Made by a program: the position numbers and the translations under genes. This document shows positions 1,988 to 62,668 of a stretch of DNA of 64,000 nt, in pieces. The stretch spans positions 5,842-69,841 of the forward strand of contig CATYVZ010000008.1 of assembly GCA_958413985.1 (NCBI GenBank). Direction: 5' to 3'. Source of the stretch: an uncultured Bacilli bacterium. GTDB taxonomy: Bacteria; Bacillota_I; Bacilli_A; RF39; UBA660. The notes beneath the pieces are model-generated. The model ran no database searches. It had not been told where the DNA came from and saw only the letters and a program-made list of their open reading frames with translations. The stretch's first letter is position 1. Every line of letters starts with the position of its first letter.

Positions 1988-2073
1988 GCTTGTGTGGCGG
2001 AATTGGTAGACGCGCACGACTCAAAATCGTGTGGCTTATGGTCATGTGGGTTCGATTCCCACCACAAGCACCA
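1988..2073 (+). tRNA. tRNA-Leu (anticodon CAA), type II with long variable arm, encoded CCA
   Basis: Acceptor stem GCTTGTG/CACAAGC. D-arm GCGGAATTGGTAGACGC. Anticodon stem CACGA/TCGTG with loop CTCAAAA. T-arm GGTTCGATTCC. Followed by hairpin terminator. Confidence 0.85.
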
Positions 2074-2084
2074 GATTGATACCA

Positions 2085-2112
2085 AACTCGAACTTTTATG
2101 GTTCGAGTTTTA
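2085..2112 (+). terminator. rho-independent terminator of tRNA-Leu(CAA)
   Basis: CTCGAAC-ttttatg-GTTCGAG stem-loop followed by TTTT. Confidence 0.6.
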
Positions 2113-2285
2113 AAATACCAAAAAAGAGTCCGTTTTTTATATAACGTTATTAATAATCTTCAAAAAATATATTTGATTTAATTATAGAAGTTCAAAAATG
2201 GAAAGTTAATAAATAATTAAATATAGCAAATTATAAGAAAAATTGTGAGAATTGGTGTATAATAAAAGATAAACAAATTGGAGGT

Positions 2286-2702
2286 ATGCTAATGAATGAA
2301 GATAAAAGATTATATTTACAGTTAATACAAAATATTATTGATAGAATGGCTGATAATTCTTTTAAAGTAAAAGGATGGGCAATTGGAGTTATGTTAGCCA
2401 TATTTTCTTTTGCTAGTAATCAGGGGGATAAGAGATGTATTTTATTTACCGTTGTTCCATTATTTGTATTATGGTTTCTAGATACTTATTATTTGCAATT
2501 AGAAAGAAAGTACAGATTATTCTATAATATAAAAAGAAATTTGAAAAATGATGAAAACTTGTATGATATGAATTACAATAATATTAAAATTGAAATGGAG
2601 GAAACAAACAAAATTTGTTTTATAAGATGTATGTTTTCATTAACAGAAGTTTTATTTTATATAACTTGCATTGCTACAAGTGTAGTAGTTTATTTGATTT
2701 AG
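2286..2702 (+). CDS. small multi-TM protein (138 aa), candidate SLATT-like membrane effector partnered with TIR-like gene
   Basis: N-terminal amphipathic helix, two closely spaced TM helices (AIGVMLAIFSFAS; ILFTVVPLFVLWFL) and a third C-terminal hydrophobic helix. Stop is 10 nt before the next start, with an AGGAGG RBS inside the 3' end. Confidence 0.5.
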   Translation: MLMNEDKRLYLQLIQNIIDRMADNSFKVKGWAIGVMLAIFSFASNQGDKRCILFTVVPLFVLWFLDTYYLQLERKYRLFYNIKRNLKNDENLYDMNYNNIKIEMEETNKICFIRCMFSLTEVLFYITCIATSVVVYLI

Positions 2703-2712
2703 GAGGCAATAT

Positions 2713-3306
2713 ATGTCAAGGAAAGTATTTATTTCATTTAGATATAGTGATGGAAACAAGTATAAGGAACTTTTAACTGAAATATTTGATAAGAATAATG
2801 ATGTTATTAATTGTTCTGAAAATATAGATAGATCGATGATGTCGGAAGCTACAATAAAAAAATACTTATATGATAAGTTGAAAAATACCAGTGTTACTAT
2901 TGTTCTTTTAACACCGGAAGCGATTAATTATAGAAAAGATTGGTATGGAAATATTAATGATTGGATTTATGATGAAGTTAGATATTCATTAGAAGATCGT
3001 GAAAATAATAGATGTAATGGTTTAATCGCAGTATATACTCCTGAAGTTAAAGATATATTAGTAAGTAAATCTTCTAGTGGCTCAACTATTATAAATGACT
3101 TTAATAATTTAGTTAGAAAAAATATGTTTAATATTTTCTCGGCATATAAAAATAATAAAGAAGAAGGTTATTATAATGCTAATTTGGATCACTATTGTTC
3201 ATTAGTATCTTGGGATGATTTTATTGAAAATTTCAATATGTATATTGAAATTGCCGAGAAAAAGAGAGAAGAAAAATACAAGTATGATGTACATAAAAAA
3301 ATGTAA
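2713..3306 (+). CDS. TIR-like domain protein (DUF1863/ThsB-like fold)
   Basis: N-terminus KVFISFRYSDG matches the canonical TIR/DUF1863 start (VFISYSxxD). Downstream SVTIVLLTPEAINYRKDWYGNINDWIYDEVRYSLE matches the TIR alphaC/betaD region with conserved W and E. Confidence 0.55.
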   Translation: MSRKVFISFRYSDGNKYKELLTEIFDKNNDVINCSENIDRSMMSEATIKKYLYDKLKNTSVTIVLLTPEAINYRKDWYGNINDWIYDEVRYSLEDRENNRCNGLIAVYTPEVKDILVSKSSSGSTIINDFNNLVRKNMFNIFSAYKNNKEEGYYNANLDHYCSLVSWDDFIENFNMYIEIAEKKREEKYKYDVHKKM

Positions 3307-3612
3307 TAAGTAGATTTTAATTATGGTAAATTGCATATCCAAAAATGCCCAGAAACTGTCCAAAAGTGATATAAAAAGTGTTCTAATTCCTTGGACACTA
3401 TGATAAGATTGGTACTAAGTGAGAAGCAAAAATTGGCTTTTAGAGCTAATTTGAAAGCTGATTACTTATGATCACAGATTGCGGAACTTGAACTTTTTAT
3501 TTGAGATTAAAATATAAAAGATATCAGATTGATTTTTCTGATATCTTTTGTCATTTTAGAAACACACTTGCATATTGACATAATCAATAAGCGTGTGCAA
3601 TAGAAAAATTCT

Positions 3613-4152
3613 TTATTTTATTGTTGCTAATATTTCCTCTATTTTATTAAACTCATTTGTGTAAAAGGTAATTCCAAAATCATATGTTGTATAATTATCA
3701 TAATTTCCCAATTCATTTTTTTGATACCTATAAAAAGTTAAAAAAATTTTGATATTTTCAGGAGATAATGCATCAGATTGTTTGTCCTCTTTTTTACTTA
3801 ATTTTGAAACCAGTTTTCGTACTATTTTTTTTGCTTCTTCAATATTTTCCTCTCTTGTATAAATTTCTCTTTTTGTTTCAATTCGATCTATTAATATAGT
3901 AGCTGAACTAGATAAATATTGTGCTAATAGTGAATCATCAATATAAATACTATCCTCTGTTATTCCTTCAAGGCAATCTTGAACAAAATCTTTATAATCA
4001 TTAGTTTCAACAACTTTATTTTCTTCAATGTTTTCATTTTCATTCTGATTATTTACAGAAGATTTATATTCTTCTTTAGTACTATTATCACTACAACCAG
4101 TAATTAAAAATAATGCAAACATTATTATTAATATTGTACTTGACTTTTTCAT
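3613..4152 (-). CDS. lipoprotein (179 aa)
   Basis: Signal peptide with lipobox LITGC (MKKSSTILIIMFALFLITGCSD). Asn/Glu-rich mature part. Hairpin AGATATCAG..CTGATATCT downstream acts as terminator. Confidence 0.5.
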   Translation of the reverse strand: MKKSSTILIIMFALFLITGCSDNSTKEEYKSSVNNQNENENIEENKVVETNDYKDFVQDCLEGITEDSIYIDDSLLAQYLSSSATILIDRIETKREIYTREENIEEAKKIVRKLVSKLSKKEDKQSDALSPENIKIFLTFYRYQKNELGNYDNYTTYDFGITFYTNEFNKIEEILATIK

Positions 4153-4322
4153 TTAAAATATCACTCAACTATCTTAACATTTTAATTATAACATAATTTT
4201 TTAATTTTTGAAATTTAAAAAATAGAAAACTTGGACAATAAAATAGAAAACTGGACAATAAACTATGCTTTTATTTACTTATATGATATAATAAAAAACA
4301 AGACTTAAAAGTAGGTGTTAAT

Positions 4323-5054
4323 ATGAGCGAGCAAAAACAAGTTATTTATATATTTATGGATGATTCTGGTAAAATGTCACATGCCGATAAATGTTGTTCA
4401 TATGGTGGTGTATATTTTAAAAATCGTTCTGATAGGGATAATTTTAAACGACATTATATGGATATAATAAATAGTAATAAATGTAGGTTTTGTGATTATG
4501 ATAGTGATTCTTGTTCTAAAAATTGTCCAGAAATAAAATCAAATAACACTAACACAAAATTTAGAAGAAGAATTGTTAATTTAATTAGAAATAGTGAATA
4601 TGCTAACTCATTTGCTACTACTATTTATAACAGGGATATTCCACTAGAAGTTTTAAATGTAAAACATTCTCGTGGAAGAAGAACTGATTATTATCAAAAA
4701 AGAATAATAAAAGAAATTGTAAAAAAACTTATTATTGATAAAGTTATTGACCCTAATAAACATCTAACCCTAATTATTAGAATAGATGAAAGTCCACAAG
4801 CAACTAATGGAAAATACAATTTGGAAGAAAGTATAATTGAAGAATTATTATATGGAATTACAAATTATGATTATGGTTGTACTTTTCCTCCAATCTTGTT
4901 TGGGGGATTAAAAGTAGATTTAAAATATGTTGATTCTAAAATTACTCCACTAGTTCAAGCATCTGATTTTTTTGTTGGGTATGTTAACTCTACATTGTTG
5001 TGGAAACCTAAAAGAGAAATGCTAGATTTTGTAGATGTTCAATTGTTTTTTTAA
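4323..5054 (+). CDS. DUF3800-like protein (243 aa)
   Basis: N-terminal IYIFMDDSG resembles the DUF3800 signature (YIDESG). Cys-rich CxxC pairs are present. Assigned by memory of the family only. Confidence 0.35.
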   Translation: MSEQKQVIYIFMDDSGKMSHADKCCSYGGVYFKNRSDRDNFKRHYMDIINSNKCRFCDYDSDSCSKNCPEIKSNNTNTKFRRRIVNLIRNSEYANSFATTIYNRDIPLEVLNVKHSRGRRTDYYQKRIIKEIVKKLIIDKVIDPNKHLTLIIRIDESPQATNGKYNLEESIIEELLYGITNYDYGCTFPPILFGGLKVDLKYVDSKITPLVQASDFFVGYVNSTLLWKPKREMLDFVDVQLFF

Positions 5055-5508
5055 CATTAACAAATTATATAAGAAAAAAGAACTAGCTATGCTAGTTCTT
5101 TCCAATTAAGGCGACGCACCACAAGTACGCTTAAACTTTCGTTCGCAACTTAATTGTACACCAGTCGAGGTAAATCCCTCCGGTAATACAATACTATCAC
5201 AATTGAATTGAAATGTCAAATAGTATTGCATTAATATTATATGTATAAAATTAAAAATAATGTAAGTTAAAACATCTATACTTTAAGAGTATTTATAAAA
5301 TTATAAAAATATGTTATACTATAACTAGTTAATGATTATTACTTACTATTTATTTTGCCTAAAAAGTTGTTGTACTTCTTCCTTTAGGGCACCAGATTGA
5401 TTGTTACTCGAACTTTGTAAAAGTTCGAGTTTTTAAGTATAATATAAAGGAAAAAGAAAAGTTATAGTGTATAATATTATTAGGAGGCACTAAAAATTAT
5501 GGATAATA

Positions 5509-6069
5509 AATTAGCCCTTTTTGAAGAAAAAGAAATTAGAAAAACTTGGGAAGAAAATAAATGGTATTTTAGCATAGTAGATGTGGTATATGCACTTACA
5601 GATTCCAAAGATCCAAAGCAATATATAAAAAAAGTTGAAATTTAGAGATTATGAGTTGCAAAATAACTGGGGTACAATTTGTACCCTGCTTGGAATGCCA
5701 ACTAAAGATGGTAAAATGAGAAAAATACAAATGAGTGATACAGAAGGAATATTAAGAATTATTCAATCAATTCCATCTCCTAAAGCAGAACCTTTTAAAA
5801 GATGGCTTGCTAGAGTTGGTAGTGAAAGAATAGAAGAAATTAATAATCCTGAACTTGCTCTTACGAATTTAGGTGAAGCAACCGCAGTAGAATTTCACAA
5901 AAAGAATAATAGTCAAGGATTAGAAGAATTAAAAAAAGATATGAACAAGGCAGGTAAAGTATTAAATAAAGCCAAACAAGAAATTGAAAATGAATTAGAA
6001 AGACCTGTTGTCACCTCGGAAAATTATATTGAATTAACGCAAAAAGAAGAATTATTAGATATAAAATAA
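5509..6069 (+). pseudogene. Bro-N / DinD-like (phage antirepressor family) gene disrupted by frameshift at an A7 run
   Basis: The frame starting at 5509 encodes MDNKLALFEEKEIRKTWEENKWYFSIVDVVYALTDSKDPKQYIKKVEI-stop, a Bro-N N-terminus. The family C-terminus (ILRIIQSIPSPKAEPFKRWLARVGSERIEE) continues in another frame as ORF 5635..6069. The break coincides with AAAAAAA at 5628-5634. Confidence 0.5.
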
Positions 6070-6295
6070 GAAAAACATGGTATACTTGTTATAGAAATTA
6101 ACCTTAATAAAGATTTCCAGACGTCGCCTAAGACACCAGATTGATTGTTACTCGAACTTTTAGAGTTTAAGTAATAAATGCTAACTAGAAATAGTTAATT
6201 TCAGACTGTTGACAAATAGGTAAAAATAATACCTATTTGTCTTTTATTATGAAATTTTATAGATAAATACAATAATACTTAATATATTTTATATA

Positions 6296-6523
6296 TTAAG
6301 CATAATGATGTAATGAGAATTTTTTCAGATTCATACACGCAAAAAGAAGGGTTAACTCTCGGTGGACCCTTTCTTTTGTTCTAAAGTATGTATTCCTTAA
6401 TCCATACTTCATTTTCCCATCTGCAAAAACTCGCTCTATATGTTGAGGTCTTTGCCCATATATTTCTTTTACATCTAACTGATGCCTATAATCATTTACC
6501 ATTTCTTTATATCCTTCCCACAC
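6296..6523 (-). mobile_element. IS1182/IS5-type transposase C-terminal remnant (75 aa)
   Basis: ERVFADGKMKYGLRNTYFRTKERVHRELTLLFACMNLKKF matches the conserved C-terminal tail of IS1182-family DDE transposases. No upstream catalytic domain, so truncated. Inverted repeat GATTTAGGTCA..TGACCTAAATC lies at 6580-6615. Confidence 0.5.
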
Positions 6524-6816
6524 ATGTCTTAATATTTGTTTATTTTTGCTTTTTGTACATTGCTCTTTAAATGGACATTTTGAACAATTAGATTTAGGTC
6601 ATAAAAACTTGACCTAAATCCATTTTACAAAAGAGAGCTTACGAAAACTACAAGATAAGATGAGAACACTTTGTATTGAATCATTTAACAAAGAATATAA
6701 TCTAATTAACTCTTTAAAGATAAAGAAAAAAGGTAGAAATATGAAGTGATATTATAAAAGTAGACAACTACAAAAAAGGTAGAAGTCTACTTTTACTTGA
6801 CTAGTTCAAATATGGT

Positions 6817-7125
6817 CTAACATTTTTTACTATAAAGAGTTTCGATCATTTTGTTAATTGTGTCTTTATCCGATTCACACAAAGAATAATATTTAGAAAT
6901 AATATTATTTTCATCAACTAAACCTTCAACGCTTGTTCCTAATGCCTCTGCAATTTTAAAAGCAACGGGAAGTGATGGTGTTCTTGTGCTAGTTTCATAA
7001 TAAGTAATACTTTGTTGTGAAACTCCTACCATAATACTAAGTTTAACTTGTGTTATGTTTTTCTTTTCTCTTAGTTTTTGCATACTAGTAAAGTCTAATT
7101 TATCTTTCTTTGACATAAATACCAC
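6817..7125 (-). CDS. XRE-family helix-turn-helix transcriptional regulator
   Basis: ITQVKLSIMVGVSQQSITYYETSTRTPSLPVAFKIAEALGTSVEGL is a Cro/CI-type HTH. 102 aa. Confidence 0.7.
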   Translation of the reverse strand: MVFMSKKDKLDFTSMQKLREKKNITQVKLSIMVGVSQQSITYYETSTRTPSLPVAFKIAEALGTSVEGLVDENNIISKYYSLCESDKDTINKMIETLYSKKC

Positions 7126-7195: not shown

Positions 7196-8362
7196 TTGAA
7201 GTTTTATGATATAATTATTTTTGAAAGTATGGTATTTGTGAAAAAAAAGATTATGTTAATTGGAATAGGAATAGGTTTAATTTTTGTTTCAAGTATATTA
7301 TTAAGTTTGATTATGACTGATTCTGATTTAGCAATCCGAATTTCAATGGGGATAGGTATTGCATATTTTATACTATTAACAATAATTTCATATATTAAAA
7401 ATATTTCTAAATATATTAAAACAGGAGAAATACCTAATACATCAAGTTTGGCAATATGGTCTATTGCTTTATTAGGTCATGCTAGTGGAAAAGGATTTGG
7501 AACTTCGTTAACATTATTGCGAGGTGCACAAGCTGCAACAAATGAATTTTCTAATACTAGCAAAAAATTAGGAATGGTAGTTTATACTTTAATAAATATA
7601 GCATTGTGGAGTTTTCTTTGCTTTATAAGTTACTTCTTTGTATTTGGTGAAACCAATTCATCTATTGTTACAGATATTTTACTTTACATTATAACTATAA
7701 GTTTATTTTTAGCTATTATCATAATACTTATAGTTGGAATAAAAGTTATTTCATATAAGAAAGAATCAGCAAAAGAAAGTTTATCAAGACATATGGGAGA
7801 ATTGCAAGAGAAAAATCCTTTACAATTTAGTTTTAAATCATTTATTCTTCACTATGGTATTGTTTATGTTATATTAGCAGTTTTAGGAATAATAGCAACT
7901 ATTTTTATGGTATGGTGTGTTAGTCAAGGTTTTAATGTACAAGAATTTATGACAGTAATTTTTGGAGAAACTTTAGGGTTAATTTTTGTATTCATTTGTG
8001 GCTTATTATTCTTATATGTTTTAGTAGGAATACCTGTTGTTCTGTTAGTTGTAATTCAAAATTTGCAACTTCAAACTATTATTTTTAATCCATTAGAAAT
8101 TAAGATGATTACTAAGAATGGCTATGATGGGTATGGAACTTACGAAAAAGTTGAAAAGAACTATTTTGTAAATGAGATAGAATCTTATTCAATAACTAAT
8201 AGATGGTTTATAATAAATGGGCAAATAGAATCTGTTATTCACAAAACTGTAAATAACTCAACAAAAGAAAAAAATAAGACACTAAATAAATTAAAGATTC
8301 CTCGCGTTTTCAACAACGAAAATATTTTCATAGAATATTTAGAAAAATCTTTGAAAAAATAG
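7196..8362 (+). CDS. polytopic membrane protein (388 aa), unknown function
   Basis: Eight or more hydrophobic helices. Divergent from the XRE regulator gene. Confidence 0.45.
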   Translation: MKFYDIIIFESMVFVKKKIMLIGIGIGLIFVSSILLSLIMTDSDLAIRISMGIGIAYFILLTIISYIKNISKYIKTGEIPNTSSLAIWSIALLGHASGKGFGTSLTLLRGAQAATNEFSNTSKKLGMVVYTLINIALWSFLCFISYFFVFGETNSSIVTDILLYIITISLFLAIIIILIVGIKVISYKKESAKESLSRHMGELQEKNPLQFSFKSFILHYGIVYVILAVLGIIATIFMVWCVSQGFNVQEFMTVIFGETLGLIFVFICGLLFLYVLVGIPVVLLVVIQNLQLQTIIFNPLEIKMITKNGYDGYGTYEKVEKNYFVNEIESYSITNRWFIINGQIESVIHKTVNNSTKEKNKTLNKLKIPRVFNNENIFIEYLEKSLKK

Positions 8363-8486
8363 AAAAATATAATGTATTTAGAGATCGATCCTAATTTCAA
8401 TCGTCCTTGTGTAAAAGTTGTAGATTACTACGACACTCATACCATAAAAAATTAGTCGAACTAATCGACTTTAAATAAAGAAAGGG

Positions 8487-8924
8487 TTAATTTTTGTTAA
8501 ACCTTATTTTCATGTTTTTGCTTAAAGTATAAGTGTTTTTTTCAACCTTATTTTCTTTTTGTAATTCGTTAATATTCAAATAAAAATTGACTTTAGCGTT
8601 ATCATCTAATTTTCCTTTTTCTTCTTCATATACTTTTGCCATAGAAAGTGCGATAAATTTGGCCTTTTCTTCAGGTGAAATAGGAAATGGTAATTCTAAA
8701 GAACAAAAACAAATATAAGTCATTTTACCTAGCATTTTAATATCATTTGAAATAAATTGATTATTTTCATAAATTAAACAATATTCTTTTTTAGTAAGCT
8801 CTAAATATACTATCAAATCTTGGTTTCTTTCAAACCAATCAGCAAGAGGTTGATAGTAATTAATAATTTTTTCTAAATATTCGTAATTACTAAAGTTTTT
8901 ATCTAATTTCATAAAACATCCCAT
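8487..8924 (-). CDS. hypothetical protein (145 aa)
   Basis: Intact ORF. Bidirectional hairpin AGTCGA-actaa-TCGACT at 8450-8466 lies downstream. Confidence 0.35.
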   Translation of the reverse strand: MGCFMKLDKNFSNYEYLEKIINYYQPLADWFERNQDLIVYLELTKKEYCLIYENNQFISNDIKMLGKMTYICFCSLELPFPISPEEKAKFIALSMAKVYEEEKGKLDDNAKVNFYLNINELQKENKVEKNTYTLSKNMKIRFNKN

Positions 8925-9170: not shown

Positions 9171-9599
9171 ATGTATAGATATAATCAAATTTCAAGTTCT
9201 TTTTCTGGATATGCTGTTTGGAGTATAGTCGCATTAATTTTAGCAGTTATTGGAGGAATATTAGCTTATTTTCTATTTGTTAAAGGTAATTTAAAATTAA
9301 ATGATAAACTAAAGAAATTAAAAAATCTTTTAGACTTCAAAGTTATGCTAATTGAGCCAATTTTAAAAATTCTTTACTTAATTAGTACAATTTTTGTAAT
9401 TTTAATTTCATTTAACCTTATCTCAGTTAATTTTATATCTTTCCTTTTAACTTTAATTTTAGGCCCAGTAGTTATTAGAATTGCTTATGAAGGAATGCTA
9501 ATTTTAGTTATGATTTGGAAAAACACAAAATCTATAAGCGAAAATACCTCTAATAGTAAAGCAAAAAATTCAAAAAGTTCAGAAAACGAAAAAAACTAG
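9171..9599 (+). CDS. small membrane protein (142 aa)
   Basis: Three TM helices. RBS GGAGTAGGTAGGG upstream. Confidence 0.4.
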   Translation: MYRYNQISSSFSGYAVWSIVALILAVIGGILAYFLFVKGNLKLNDKLKKLKNLLDFKVMLIEPILKILYLISTIFVILISFNLISVNFISFLLTLILGPVVIRIAYEGMLILVMIWKNTKSISENTSNSKAKNSKSSENEKN

Positions 9600-41711: not shown

Positions 41712-42055
41712 GGGGTCGTCTAGTTTCGACGGAAACACTATTTTTAAAGGGCAAGTCGTCAAGGTATGACGTTATAATCCAAATTAAAAATAACTGGAAA
41801 CAGAAATCAATTAGCTTTCGCTTAATAATTTAGAAGGCTGCTTCTTTATTTCTTTACTTACGAGAAATAAAAGAGGCTCGATTAGTGAGTTATATCGATA
41901 GTTTTTTTTCTAGGATTATCGATGAATTTAATAGAAATTACTGAGTGAAATTTTGATAGTTTATTATCACTTAGGACAACAACAAATTATCTAAACTTGT
42001 AGAACTTTAATCTTGGTATTTTCGGACAGGGGTGCGATTCCCCTCGACTCCACCA
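41712..42055 (+). ncRNA. ssrA: tmRNA (ssrA)
   Basis: 5' GGGGTCG pairs with 3' CGACTCCACCA. tRNA-like T-arm GGACAGGGGTGCGATTCCCCTC. Internal reading frame ending GCT TTC GCT TAA TAA (tag ending ...LAFA-stop-stop). Length 344 nt. Confidence 0.8.
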
Positions 42056-42637
42056 ATTAGTAATTAGTTGCTAACTATAATAGTTAGTAATTTTTATTTA
42101 TCTAAAATTTGATACAATCTTTCAAAATAGAAATTGTCTTGCTAAAAATTTAAATGATTGATTTTCTTTAAAAATTATGTTATATTAAATATGTCAGGGA
42201 AACTTGCATATAATAAAAAAGAATACATTTGATTGTTGCAAATCAAATGCATTCCCTTGTTGGATATGGCATCTGAAATCACATTGTTGTGAAATCAGAT
42301 GCTTTTATTATTTAAATAGTAAGGTGATTACTACAAAAAATAATAGTAGAATTATAATAAATAGAGAAAATTTTCTTTTTGTCATAATTAACCACCAACT
42401 TTCTTAAAGAAGAAAGGGAAAGCATCTGATATTTTCAAATGTATCCAAAAAATATTATGCCAAACAATACGATTTCAAGTAATACTTACTATTTTTTCTA
42501 ATACTTTGAAAATACAGAATAAAATCATTACTGGTAATTTGTTGTAATAATCACCTAACTTAATAAAATAAAAAAGAAATCATATAAATTAGAGTAGCAA
42601 ACTCAAATATTAATGATTTTCTTTTTTTGAATATAAA

Positions 42638-62521: not shown

Positions 62522-62610
62522 GCCTGAGTGGCGAAATTGGTAGACGCACAGGACTTAAAATCCTGCGGAAGTCAAATTCCGTGCCGGTTCAAGTCCGGCC
62601 TTAGGCACCA
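62522..62610 (+). tRNA. tRNA-Leu (anticodon TAA), type II, encoded CCA
   Basis: Acceptor GCCTGAG/CTTAGGC (one G-U pair). D-arm GCGAAATTGGTAGACGC. Anticodon loop CTTAAAA. Long variable arm. T-arm GGTTCAAGTCC. Confidence 0.85.
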
Positions 62611-62623
62611 CTTTGATAGAAAG

Positions 62624-62668
62624 CTCAAACTTTTGAAATTAATTCAATGGTTTGAGTTTTATTATGCA
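62624..62668 (+). terminator. rho-independent terminator after tRNA-Leu(UAA)
   Basis: CTCAAAC..GTTTGAG stem with T-run. Confidence 0.5.

Follow-up and report, generated by a model that had tools for sequence, protein, structure and literature searches.

How did a short sequence come to be repeated downstream of the tRNA-Leu(CAA) gene of an uncultured Bacilli bacterium, and which type of enzyme put it there? The locus lies near one end of a 64-kb stretch of DNA (the whole stretch analysed, hereafter the window), and the original prediction was that of successive site-specific insertions at the tRNA 3' end. Its picture of tandem integrated elements without a recombinase stands, whereas a repeat derived from a tRNA fragment, a tyrosine enzyme and an array ending at 6172 do not. 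It is very probable that the array consists of recombination junctions of small integrated elements, arranged in tandem at the CCA end of tRNA-Leu(CAA).

The core repeat and the junctions of the array

The sequence CACCAGATTGAT occurs three times in the window, always on the + strand (2069, 5390 and 6134), and no further copy was found in the 64 kb, even at one mismatch. Shuffled controls gave a mean of 0.23 matches and reached three in 0 of 100 shuffles, which, together with the exact pattern, confirms the three direct repeats noticed earlier. Copies 2 and 3 have 30 of 32 nt in common. Because the tRNA contributes CACCA only (2069-2073, 5 nt), the repeat is not the tRNA-Leu 3' fragment it had been taken for, and the same core follows the CCA of other tRNAs. 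The repeat represents the core of the attachment site in a family of integrative mobilizable elements, and tRNA-Leu(CAA) is the integration target, with its T arm and acceptor 3' strand as the left (B) half-site. Strong core copies within the window are confined to the tRNA-Leu locus, and a dispersed element present at many non-tRNA sites is not what the copies represent. The tRNA and the five junctions are as follows.

1988..2073, + strand: tRNA-Leu(CAA) (ARAGORN; Rfam tRNA, 61.7 bits)
2069..2116, + strand: junction 1 (attL), tRNA CACCA, core GATTGATACCAAACTCGAAC and full hairpin (exact pattern; profile E=3e-13)
3440..3567, + strand: junction 2 (decayed), GTTTGAAA-class right arm, CAC-AGATTG..CTTGAAC, conserved flank with hairpin 3516-3549
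5345..5435, + strand: junction 3, GTTGTTGTAC-class right arm (5345-5389), then CACCA, core and full terminator (5390-5435) (profile E=1.9e-8)
6089..6201, + strand: junction 4, TTTCCAAA-class right arm (6089-6133), then CACCA, core and P1-type left arm (6134-6201) (profile E=1.1e-11)
8395..8503, + strand: junction 5 (decayed), GTTGTAGA-class right arm (8395-8439), tACCA (8440-8444), class-2 trailer with two hairpins (8445-8503)

The array thus begins with an attL at the tRNA and ends with a junction at 8440, with three internal junctions between them; of the five, three are exact and two decayed, and all lie in one orientation downstream of the tRNA. It extends from 2074 to about 8445 (the final junction reaching 8503), past the predicted end at 6172, and this further part holds a decayed element with a Mob_Pre relic. 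The proposal that the segments between the repeats are separate cargo modules is supported; there are four, none with a recombinase. Upstream of every internal junction stands a right arm, and the class to which it belongs is met again, in register, at core copies of other genomes that do not adjoin a tRNA.

The degenerate copy at 3473 is the top remaining match in the window to a profile from 123 copies (E=0.12). With about 90 nt of flank it is homologous to a bona fide copy in locus L032 (87% over 71 nt, E ~1e-13) and also to the att copy of L075, matches that identify it as a true homologue. A terminator had been assigned to each copy, and the hairpin ACTCGAAC..GTTCGAGT is indeed intact at 2086-2108 and 5406-5430. 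The arm at 6151, read before as truncated, is not a product of decay but a recurrent, distinct type, built of a mini-hairpin and, after it, a second hairpin, GCTAACTAGAAATAGTTA; relatives have this type directly 5' of a serine-recombinase operon. In junction 4 it is the P1-type left arm, the kind present upstream of recombinase operons, and the junction is ~90% identical to the attL arms of L016, L058 and L067 and 80% identical to the right ends of L117 and L075. Junction 5 matches the L072 junction at 75% over 106 nt and the left arms of L075 and L117 at 87% over 61 nt.

Targets and recombinases in related genomes

Among uncultured gut Bacilli, some 106 genomes, counted at species level, contain the exact 20-base core pattern, in a total of at least 120 stretches. 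There it stands immediately after the CCA of tmRNA and of no fewer than 12 tRNA species, Thr, Leu, Arg, Phe and Lys among them. Altogether, the CCA of a tRNA or tmRNA immediately precedes 79 of the 124 copies (Thr-GGT 21, Leu-CAA 16, tmRNA 13, Leu-TAG 8, Arg-CCT 5, and others); among the remaining copies with upstream sequence, most have an element right arm and a few adjoin tRNA ends uncalled by ARAGORN. The midpoint of an imperfect dyad, GTTCGA..TCGAAC, falls between C74 and C75; placed there, it has on average 9.7 of 22 matches, and 3.7-8.0 when the centre is shifted to 16 other positions. Measured from this midpoint, the motif of the right arm is 4-5 bp more distant than the T-loop motif of the tRNA, which matches the 5-bp attP/attB offset of serine integrases (PMC3783163).

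The commonest gene beside the core encodes a large serine recombinase (LSR; 29 of 120 loci) with the Pfam domains Resolvase (1.4e-34), Recombinase (1.2e-17) and Zn_ribbon_recom. Its operon opens with a ~90-aa ORF some 80-100 nt downstream of tRNA-adjacent cores; the LSR gene lies about 400-500 nt downstream of the core on the same strand, followed by Mob_Pre. In L086, such an operon occupies the syntenic ScpA-ScpB-tRNA-Leu(CAA) site. Complete elements bounded by junctions (L075 and L117, ~6.2-6.4 kb) both carry LSR and Mob_Pre relaxase, the element order being left arm (core GATTGATAGGAAACTCGAAC plus terminator), ~90-aa ORF, LSR, Mob_Pre, variable cargo and a conserved right arm ending in ..CG-CACCA. 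A recombinase-relaxase module of 3.6 kb is shared between unrelated tRNAs, its DNA being 93% identical at tRNA-Thr (L034) and tRNA-Leu (L086), and again 93% identical at tmRNA (L059) and tRNA-Phe (L121). In the first pair homology begins 2 nt before CACCA; in the second the BLAST alignment starts 19 nt earlier, in T-arm-like sequence common to both, identity being continuous from 1 nt before CACCA onwards.

The model implied by the original prediction was that classical tyrosine integrases targeting the tRNA-Leu 3' end inserted the islands and that all integrase genes have since been lost. The 3' ends of tRNA and tmRNA genes are classical targets of these enzymes (PMC4383910), a tyrosine-recombinase ORF adjoins a non-tRNA copy in L025, and tyrosine-type elements do use neighbouring sites, since the core of viral contig L165 is preceded by prophage ends that carry an 18-nt 3' fragment of tmRNA. 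However, the repeat holds 5 nt of tRNA and not a displaced fragment of 15-50 nt, and tyrosine-recombinase ORFs occur at 3 of 120 loci, far below the serine enzymes, which sit at a fixed position by the core; relatives therefore speak against a tyrosine integrase as the cognate enzyme. Moreover, CACCA is nearly all that the paired junctions of complete elements have in common (L117), in keeping with a 2-bp crossover. This model is hardly credible.

Another explanation sees the core as a conserved tRNA trailer and terminator of the clade, with the window modules swapped by homologous recombination through conserved flanks, e.g., after DNA uptake, rather than by a site-specific reaction. The core does overlap the terminator hairpin, the tRNA-Leu(TAA) trailer has a compensatory change preserving that hairpin, most tRNA-adjacent cores have no recombinase nearby, and allelic replacement via the ScpB-tRNA and module-3 flanks could give the difference between strain L007 and the window. 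Nevertheless, it leaves unexplained the element-type right arms, in register before every internal copy, the 3.6-kb module at unrelated tRNAs with homology from about CACCA, and the single trailer common to unrelated tRNAs in ~106 species, and we consider it improbable.

Some findings weigh against the LSR model itself. A recombinase lies within 1.5 kb of only 15 of 52 tRNA-adjacent cores with enough downstream sequence, the core doubles as part of a terminator, and the L025 tyrosine-recombinase ORF ends 100 nt before its core copy. Junctions of the attL and attR types conserve the right half-site to about the same degree, an unusual trait, since attP and attB of serine integrases normally share little.

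Proposed mechanism and known systems

As predicted, the 64-kb window holds no recombinase gene, nor a relic of one, by tblastn and profile HMM, and the serine-recombinase link therefore rests on relatives, from which we infer that an LSR of this family made the window junctions. The enzyme would bring together two sites, the attP of the circular element, in which CCA stands between right arm and core, and an attB in which a core-like trailer follows the T arm, acceptor and CCA of a tRNA or tmRNA 3' end; strand exchange would take place at a dinucleotide within CCA, most likely C74-C75. The tRNA would be left intact and would gain the terminator of the element; since tRNAs in general have these target features, one element could use many tRNA genes. 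Newcomers would integrate at the tRNA-proximal junction and displace older elements outward (accretion), which would set the order of arrival, and deletions might then strip the recombinase and relaxase genes, yielding recombinase-less modules of the cis-mobilizable-element type, the kind to which all four window modules belong. Neither an excised circle nor an empty site was observed for the window species.

SCCmec elements (CcrAB/CcrC, rlmH/orfX 3' end) similarly employ large serine recombinases, insert at the very 3' end of an essential gene, which stays functional, and form tandem composites with ccr-less pseudo-SCC elements, bounded by repeated integration-site sequences; unlike the present family, they target one protein gene only, lack a relaxase and have repeats of 15-18 bp. 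Integron arrays and CALINs also consist of short, mostly single-gene units between a repeated recombination site with an inverted repeat, and integrase-less attC clusters (CALINs) are arrays that exist without a recombinase. On the other hand, integrons use the tyrosine recombinase IntI on folded single-stranded attC and their cassettes have no promoters, whereas the enzyme linked to the present core belongs to the serine recombinases, the modules have promoter-like boxes and a tRNA CCA end anchors the array.

Tandem serine-recombinase islands at ssrA and accretion of recombinase-less elements both have precedents (PMC3146451, PMC5704250). In the Dehalococcoides ssrA islands (DsiB, CcrB-like), whose description also mentions SCCmec, a serine recombinase rather than a tyrosine integrase acts at a tRNA-like target (tmRNA), tandem islands are separated by direct repeats, the integration module lies beside attL, and some islands without it were read as cis-mobilizable elements added by accretion, all as here (PMC3146451). 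They differ in a crossover placed in the T-loop with a 20-bp ssrA repeat (in the present family the repeat takes no more than CCA(+2) from the target), in ssrA as the only target (here at least 12 tRNA species plus tmRNA), and in DsiA plus DsiB, both serine recombinases, without relaxase (here a single large recombinase plus Mob_Pre relaxase) (PMC3146451). ICESt1/ICESt3 and CIMEs likewise show integration followed by decay to a recombinase-less element keeping its att sites, and entry of a newcomer into one att site to give attL-attI-attR arrays, but the enzymes are tyrosine integrases, which act on fda or tRNA 3' ends; a review of such systems notes that the IMEs with a serine recombinase known to date mostly interrupt protein genes that the host can spare, rather than sit at tRNA ends (PMC5704250). 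Prochlorococcus tycheposons resemble the present elements in forming islands by tRNA/tmRNA genes (seven there), in successive integrations that displace older elements outward, and in degraded remnants and cargo-only segments; they differ in mostly tyrosine recombinases (large serine recombinases in a minority, 27 of 937), partial tRNA copies as flanks and one tRNA per integrase type (bioRxiv 10.1101/2020.12.28.424599).

Cargo and possible mobility of the modules

The window modules mainly carry candidate anti-phage genes.

2286..2702, + strand: module 1a, 138-aa membrane protein of PDC-M50A type (PADLOC PDC-M50A E=1.4e-38; no Pfam match)
2713..3306, + strand: module 1a, ThsB-like TIR protein (Pfam ThsB_TIR E=2.5e-8; PADLOC ThsB E=9.7e-77)
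3613..4152, - strand: module 1b, 179-aa putative lipoprotein (ORF; signal/lipobox-like N-terminus LFLITGCSDN; no family match in Pfam or PADLOC)
4323..5054, + strand: module 1b, DUF3800 protein (Pfam DUF3800 E=4.2e-7)
5066..5191, - strand: DUF3800-I RNA motif (Rfam RF02969, 67.3 bits versus a gathering score of 44.2)
5499..6069, + strand: module 2, Bro-N pseudogene (ORFs; Pfam Bro-N E=6.3e-6)
6296..6523, - strand: IS1182-like DDE transposase, C-terminal stub (Pfam DDE_Tnp_1_6 E=2.7e-11)
6618..6746, + strand: Mob_Pre (MobV) relaxase relic (tblastn 55% over 40 aa, E=5.8e-7; profile HMM E=1.7e-8)
6817..7125, - strand: module 3, HTH_3 (XRE-type) regulator (Pfam HTH_3 E=4.6e-14)
7196..8362, + strand: module 3, 388-aa multi-pass membrane protein (ORF; Pfam matches sub-threshold only)

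The DUF3800-I RNA has its own terminator (5103-5075, minus strand) and is convergent with the DUF3800 gene. The complete element L075 apparently also carries a DUF3800-like cargo gene (N-terminal YADES motif, by eye only). In module 2, an in-frame stop breaks the Bro-N gene into 48 and 144 aa; in L139 both parts lie in a single frame, in a gene directly after the tRNA trailer. Module 3, a decayed element, retains a recombinase-type left arm, the relaxase relic, a right arm and the IS stub. The DDE_Tnp_1_6 match bears out the IS1182-like transposase stub proposed at 6296; a hairpin (6211-6241) precedes it, and it occupies the expected place of the recombinase operon.

The array might be no fossil: a serine recombinase whose gene lies in another part of the genome, or arrives with a further element, would still move the single-gene cassettes of the array in trans, like those of integrons. 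Cores are intact at junctions 1, 3 and 4, and at least 10 other genomes also have modules of 0.6-1.5 kb that lack a recombinase but have a left arm, a promoter-like box of their own and a right arm, mostly with one ORF (in three modules there is no ORF of at least 90 aa, or a relic only). Furthermore, a strain 99.4% identical upstream (L007/L008) departs from the window exactly after 2073 (CCA) and has at the same site a different cassette, a 1.5-kb, single-gene Schlafen/AlbA_2 unit ending with a GTTGTAGA-class arm and core. Against this stand the missing recombinase of the window, two decayed junctions, a pseudogene as one cassette gene, and the gene relics kept in module 3 and L090, which are expected from decay by deletion; we find continued movement in trans a rather doubtful possibility. 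Identical cargo proteins were found in the same arrangement only, never in another context, which gives no evidence for recent movement of the window modules, and the array looks fixed in this species.

The tRNA-Leu(CAA) array and its cargo

The array in the window is bounded by five att junctions, whose arm classes are common to complete elements of related genomes. As the original prediction stated, the repeat CACCAGATTGAT lies at 2069, 5390 and 6134 (copies 1, 2 and 3), and the hairpin ACTCGAAC/GTTCGAGT is complete 3' of copies 1 and 2. The window holds no other site with one mismatch allowed, and after shuffling it held a mean of 0.23 matches, none of 100 shuffles reaching three. The extent first reported was too short, since a fifth junction lies at 8395-8503 and the array can be traced as far as 8503.

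Features of the tRNA-Leu(CAA) array (strand given where assigned)
1988-2073, tRNA-Leu(CAA) (ARAGORN)
2069-2116, junction 1 (copy 1), attL, the tRNA-side junction
Up to 3476, module 1a, PDC-M50A/TIR pair
2286-2702, PDC-M50A-type membrane protein of 138 aa (PADLOC candidate PDC-M50A, 1.4e-38)
2713-3306, ThsB-like TIR protein (PADLOC 9.7e-77; Pfam ThsB_TIR 2.5e-8)
3440-3567, junction 2, decayed (CAC-AGATTG, CTTGAAC), hairpin 3516-3549 in flank
Module 1b, lipoprotein, DUF3800 and DUF3800-I RNA
3613-4152, minus, putative lipoprotein
4323-5054, DUF3800 protein
4323-5191, span of the DUF3800 gene and, on the opposite strand to it, DUF3800-I RNA (Rfam RF02969, 67 bits) that has a terminator of its own
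5345-5435, junction 3 (copy 2)
Module 2, 744 bp, Bro-N pseudogene as sole cargo
5499-6069, Bro-N gene, interrupted by a stop codon
6089-6201, junction 4 (copy 3), right arm resembling the L117 and L075 ones (loci with elements seen complete), left arm of recombinase-operon type
Module 3, hairpin, transposase stub, Mob_Pre relic, HTH gene and membrane protein; recombinase operon gone
6296-6523, minus, DDE_Tnp_1_6 transposase C-terminal stub
6618-6746, Mob_Pre relic of 40 aa (tblastn E=5.8e-7; profile 1.7e-8)
6817-7125, minus, HTH_3 regulator
7196-8362, membrane protein
8395-8503, junction 5, GTTGTAGA-class arm, tACCA, class-2 trailer

Copies 2 and 3 have 30 of 32 nt in common, and copy 1 keeps the 12-mer, followed by a variable patch of 4-5 nt and then ACTCGAACTTT. 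Upstream of the internal copies lies an element arm, not tRNA, its class being GTTTGAAA at 3473, GTTGTTGTAC at 5390, TTTCCAAA at 6134 and GTTGTAGA at 8440. Junction 2 matches the core profile at E=0.12 only; together with some 90 nt of its flank, it aligns with bona fide junctions of two other genomes, L032 (87% identity over 71 nt, E about 1e-13) and L075. The class-2 trailer of junction 5 matches the L075 and L117 left arms at 87% identity, and the left arm of junction 4 is about 90% identical to the arms found 5' of the recombinase operon in L016, L058 and L067, where the operon lies at tmRNA or tRNA-Thr. Two other readings of the arms were abandoned. The sequence TAAGTAATAAATGCTAACTAGAAAT after copy 3 was rejected as the end of an IS1182-like element because it directly precedes the recombinase operon after tRNAs or tmRNA in the same three loci, and the resemblance of GTTGTAGAT in right arms to the 3' end of a Cas12a repeat was dropped because several arm classes align in register with the T arm of the tRNA and the neighbourhood lacks a Cas gene.

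No relic of the recombinase or of its small companion ORF was found anywhere in the 64 kb (tblastn for the recombinase; profile HMM), in agreement with the earlier statement that no recombinase is left, and the window contains no tyrosine integrase gene. The modules are without their own recombination and transfer genes, as cis-mobilizable elements (CIMEs) are. In module 1a no ThsA partner (SIR2 or Macro) is present beside the ThsB-like TIR, so that the pair falls outside Thoeris and fits the candidate system PDC-M50 better; together the two genes (2286-3306) form a candidate two-gene defence system of a TIR protein and a membrane effector. In module 1b the DUF3800-I RNA is convergent with the DUF3800 gene, and the pair, for which no function is known (PMC5737381), is carried in a mobile module beside defence genes. 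A DUF3800-like cargo gene is also apparent in the complete element of L075 from an N-terminal YADES motif, read by eye only. In a related species (L139, ScpAB 84% identity) the same Bro-N gene lies directly 3' of the tRNA trailer. Beyond 8503, the ORFs of 145 aa and 142 aa that lie 5' of pflB matched no family, and the related loci contain no homologue of them.

The linked recombinase and its probable tRNA targets

A scan of one genome per GTDB species for the pattern CACCAGATTGAT-N3-6-ACTCGAAC recovered at least 120 stretches, from about 106 assemblies of uncultured gut Bacilli/'Tenericutes', including Acholeplasma sp. CAG:878 and Candidatus Ventrenecus, with human, mouse, rabbit, chicken and ruminant as sample hosts. 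Among the matches listed, 79 of 124 copies of the core (the attachment-site sequence) lie directly 3' of the CCA of a tRNA or tmRNA, namely tRNA-Thr(GGT) (21), Leu(CAA) (16), tmRNA (13), Leu(TAG) (8) and Arg(CCT) (5), with Phe, Arg(ACG), Arg(TCT), Arg(CCG), Thr(CGT), Lys(CTT), Leu(TAA) and Leu(CAG) as further sites. Several tRNAs of one assembly can bear the core, as do Leu(CAA), Leu(TAG) and Arg(CCT) in CAOJEH01. An integration hotspot with fossil modules was rightly recognised at tRNA-Leu(CAA), but its specificity for tRNA-Leu does not hold, since the core is found at many tRNAs and tmRNA. The other 45 of these 124 listed copies were scored as not tRNA-adjacent; most of those with upstream sequence have recurrent in-register arms of few types, and a few in fact follow T-arm and acceptor sequence that ARAGORN missed, mostly near contig ends. 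The right-arm classes are ..AAAGTTGTAGATAACT-N8-CG, ..AAATTTCCAAACGTG.., ..AGTTGTTGTACTTCTTCC..GGG and ..AAGTTTGAAATAACTT...

All ORFs of the 120 loci among the matches listed were clustered to find the neighbours of the core. The commonest, present in 29 of these 120 loci, is a large serine recombinase (LSR), whose length is about 610-646 aa and whose domains are Resolvase (1.4e-34), Recombinase (1.2e-17) and Zn_ribbon_recom. Tyrosine-recombinase ORFs, sought by iterative HMM from an Xer-like seed ORF, are rare in the same listed set (3 of 120 loci, one near a junction), which speaks against the cognate tyrosine integrase that had been expected. The recombinase-less variable island of the window can now be explained as one of serine-recombinase elements, most likely built by this LSR family; because an LSR with its Resolvase, Recombinase and zinc-ribbon domains is absent from the window, what it holds are derivatives of LSR elements, not members.

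The recombinase operon begins with an ORF of about 90 aa, about 80-100 nt 3' of tRNA-adjacent cores, and the recombinase gene follows in the same orientation about 400-500 nt downstream, its sequence overlapping that of a Mob_Pre relaxase gene (1e-29). The conserved ORF (about 88-92 aa), always 5' of the recombinase gene (L086, L034, L075, L117 and others), has no Pfam match and could encode a directionality factor or regulator. One recombinase element (L086) occupies the syntenic ScpA-ScpB-tRNA-Leu(CAA) site. L075 and L117 contain whole elements of about 6.2-6.4 kb, from left junction to right arm and core; their 3.6-kb recombinase-relaxase modules are 92% identical and their last 115 nt 85%, whereas their cargo is different.

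Against phage and plasmid records (tblastn), the recombinase showed at most 38% identity, in its N-terminal half only, and no close characterised relative was found among them; its best PDB match is the TP901-1 integrase catalytic domain. A scan of viral contigs gave three matches, each at a junction next to a prophage end, and did not find attP in free form. In two of these contigs (L164, L165) predicted prophage ends are followed by the core and a recombinase-element arm, and in L165 the 18 nt directly before the core match the tmRNA 3' end; prophages and recombinase elements thus stack at the same tmRNA hotspot. At another locus (L025), a tyrosine-recombinase ORF (36-722) ends about 100 nt 5' of a non-tRNA core copy, and a second element type may use or abut the core site there.

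Probable crossover position and possible exchange of cassettes

The repeat had been taken for a copy of the tRNA 3' end with its terminator. A displaced tRNA 3' fragment is typically at least 15 nt long; the only part of the repeat derived from the tRNA is CACCA, that is, C72, the discriminator A73 and CCA. Nearly the same element is found at different tRNAs. The recombinases at tRNA-Thr (L034) and tRNA-Leu (L086) are 94.6% identical and those at tmRNA (L059) and tRNA-Phe (L121) 96.4%, with 93% DNA identity over 3.6 kb and 2.1 kb, respectively. Homology begins 2 nt 5' of CACCA in the Thr/Leu pair; in the tmRNA/Phe pair the BLAST alignment begins 19 nt earlier, in T-arm-like sequence common to both, and identity is continuous from 1 nt 5' of CACCA. 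These starts place the left end of the element at CCA and indicate that no particular tRNA is targeted.

Leftward, right arms are variable up to CCA, with TACCA or CTCCA at some junctions; rightward, elements of the L117/L075 type and a cassette of a same-species strain (L007) depart from the common core immediately 3' of CCA. In L117, attL and attR have little in common beyond CACCA. Since CCA alone is common to all junctions, a 2-bp crossover would have to be CC or CA, and from these alignments the crossover apparently lies inside CCA. The serine-recombinase family appears to use the CCA end itself, which leaves it untied to one tRNA.

An imperfect dyad is centred at the same place, the T-loop GTTCGA and the core TCGAAC each lying 22 nt from the centre between C74 and C75. 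Over 76 tRNA-adjacent copies, symmetric matches average 9.7 of 22 at C74|C75, against 3.7-8.0 at sixteen shifted centres, and the outer 8 nt of the dyad reach 6.1 of 8, where no shifted centre exceeds 4.0. In the right arms, the GTTGTAGA or GTTGTTGTAC motif begins 26-27 nt away from C74|C75, 4-5 bp beyond the T-loop motif, and the same offset of the zinc-ribbon-domain motif distinguishes attP from attB half-sites (Rutherford et al., PMC3783163). It is odd that the right half-site has attB-type spacing in both junction types, and its conservation is unusually strong in both.

An exact look-up of ScpB gave 23 contigs, most of which repeat the window. The exceptions of interest are L007 and L008, from a strain of the same species, which match the window at 99.4% identity over 1-2073 and lose all similarity exactly after CCA. 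They continue (L007 10693-12236, the same in L008) with a diverged trailer/left arm with hairpin and a single gene of 432 aa with SLFN_AlbA_2 and HATPase_c_4 domains, followed at the contig end by ..ATAGTTGTAGATAGCTTTCCCAATCG-CACCAGATTGATTGTTACTCGAACTTTTCGAG, a stretch that is the sequence of window copy 3; the right arm of this cassette belongs to the GTTGTAGA class. One strain therefore has a single 1.5-kb cassette in the position of modules 1a, 1b and 2 of the other, with the left breakpoint at CCA.

Whether the array is fossil or active can be judged from both sides. Exact-protein look-ups for the TIR, DUF3800 and Bro-N proteins returned the window arrangement only, with no other context or empty site, and this, together with two decayed junctions and one broken cargo gene, points to an array that is largely fixed. 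Three cores are perfect, however, and the L007/L008 haplotype shows replacement at the site. A metagenome scan with the tRNA-Leu 3' end yielded 13 loci, all from other species and each with another trailer class, and no empty site for the window species among them. Modules of 0.6-1.5 kb without recombinase occur in at least 10 other genomes (L020, L032, L040, L087, L090, L102, L122, L126, L127, L131), each framed by a left and a right arm and bearing a promoter-like TGnTAnAAT box; most contain one ORF, and three only a relic or no ORF of at least 90 aa. Some modules (L090, window module 3) keep gene relics, as an origin by deletion predicts, while others look clean and minimal.

Tentatively, and with the whole scheme rather doubtful, we propose that one LSR family in a whole clade of uncultured gut Bacilli would cross inside the universal CCA of essentially any tRNA or tmRNA, seeding a portable half-site and terminator. 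With tRNA ends as expandable docks, short cassettes that lack a recombinase, often of a single gene and in many cases for defence, might then stack there and be exchanged in trans, in a serine-recombinase analogue of the integron.

Small differences were also seen between assemblies of the window species. L005 and L006, which are independent assemblies, both end within the hairpin loop of junction 3 (window 5418-5422); the repeat common to junctions 3 and 4 is only 27 nt, and a population variant at junction 3 is therefore possible. Inside the 142-aa membrane-protein ORF (9171-9599), about 45 bp (about 15 codons; window 9330-9363) are absent in L003, L004 and L011, an indel that leaves some strains with an ORF of 127 aa.

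Known systems and other sites in the window

Integration at tRNA ends is textbook behaviour for tyrosine integrases, but the window has neither the integrase nor the displaced tRNA fragment of an Islander-type tyrosine-integrase island. It also differs from an integron or CALIN, because the junctions here have no linked tyrosine recombinase and the repeats have arms of serine-recombinase type. SCCmec composites are a further analogue. The closest precedent is provided by the ssrA islands of Dehalococcoides, in which a CcrB-like serine recombinase is found and tandem islands are parted by a 20-bp ssrA repeat; some of these islands are without an integration module and were read as CIMEs added by accretion (PMC3146451), a scheme that derives from ICESt1-type elements (PMC5704250). 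Tycheposons are likewise tRNA-adjacent islands that grow by successive integration, 27 of 937 having a large serine recombinase (bioRxiv 10.1101/2020.12.28.424599), and known serine-recombinase integrative mobilizable elements usually disrupt dispensable protein genes (PMC5704250). The elements described here differ from these systems in the crossover apparently inside CCA, the many tRNA species used per element, the portable conserved right half-site with terminator, and the Mob_Pre relaxase to which the recombinase is coupled. In the literature searched, which covers the field in part, no description of such a CCA-end serine-recombinase system was found, and novelty is unproven. If the crossover and target rules hold, they would show how a single element family can gain many safe landing sites in a small genome. 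They would also explain the growth of tRNA-associated defence islands in a gut lineage that has received little study, and would add a serine integrase whose natural target geometry is well defined and which might be of interest for genome engineering.

Two other sites in the window bear on the same family. At window 62522-62665, a diverged copy of the core with a long-loop hairpin (CACCA|CTTTGATAGAAAGCTCAAAC..GTTTGAGTTTT) lies 3' of tRNA-Leu(TAA) and is homologous to the copy in L080; the trailer has changed from CTCGAAC/GTTCGAG to CTCAAAC/GTTTGAG, a compensatory change that keeps the hairpin, and the site may be a second, older docking site within the window. The trailer of the window tmRNA (41712-42100; CACCA-ATT-AGTAATTAGTTGCTAACTATAATAGTTAGTAATTT) aligns with the distal P1-type left arm of recombinase elements and does not contain the 31-nt core; either the site at this tmRNA is virgin, or a copy of the native tmRNA terminator of the clade is part of the element arm. 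In L116, a relative with a similar tmRNA tag (GNRNELAFA), a recombinase element is located at the tmRNA.
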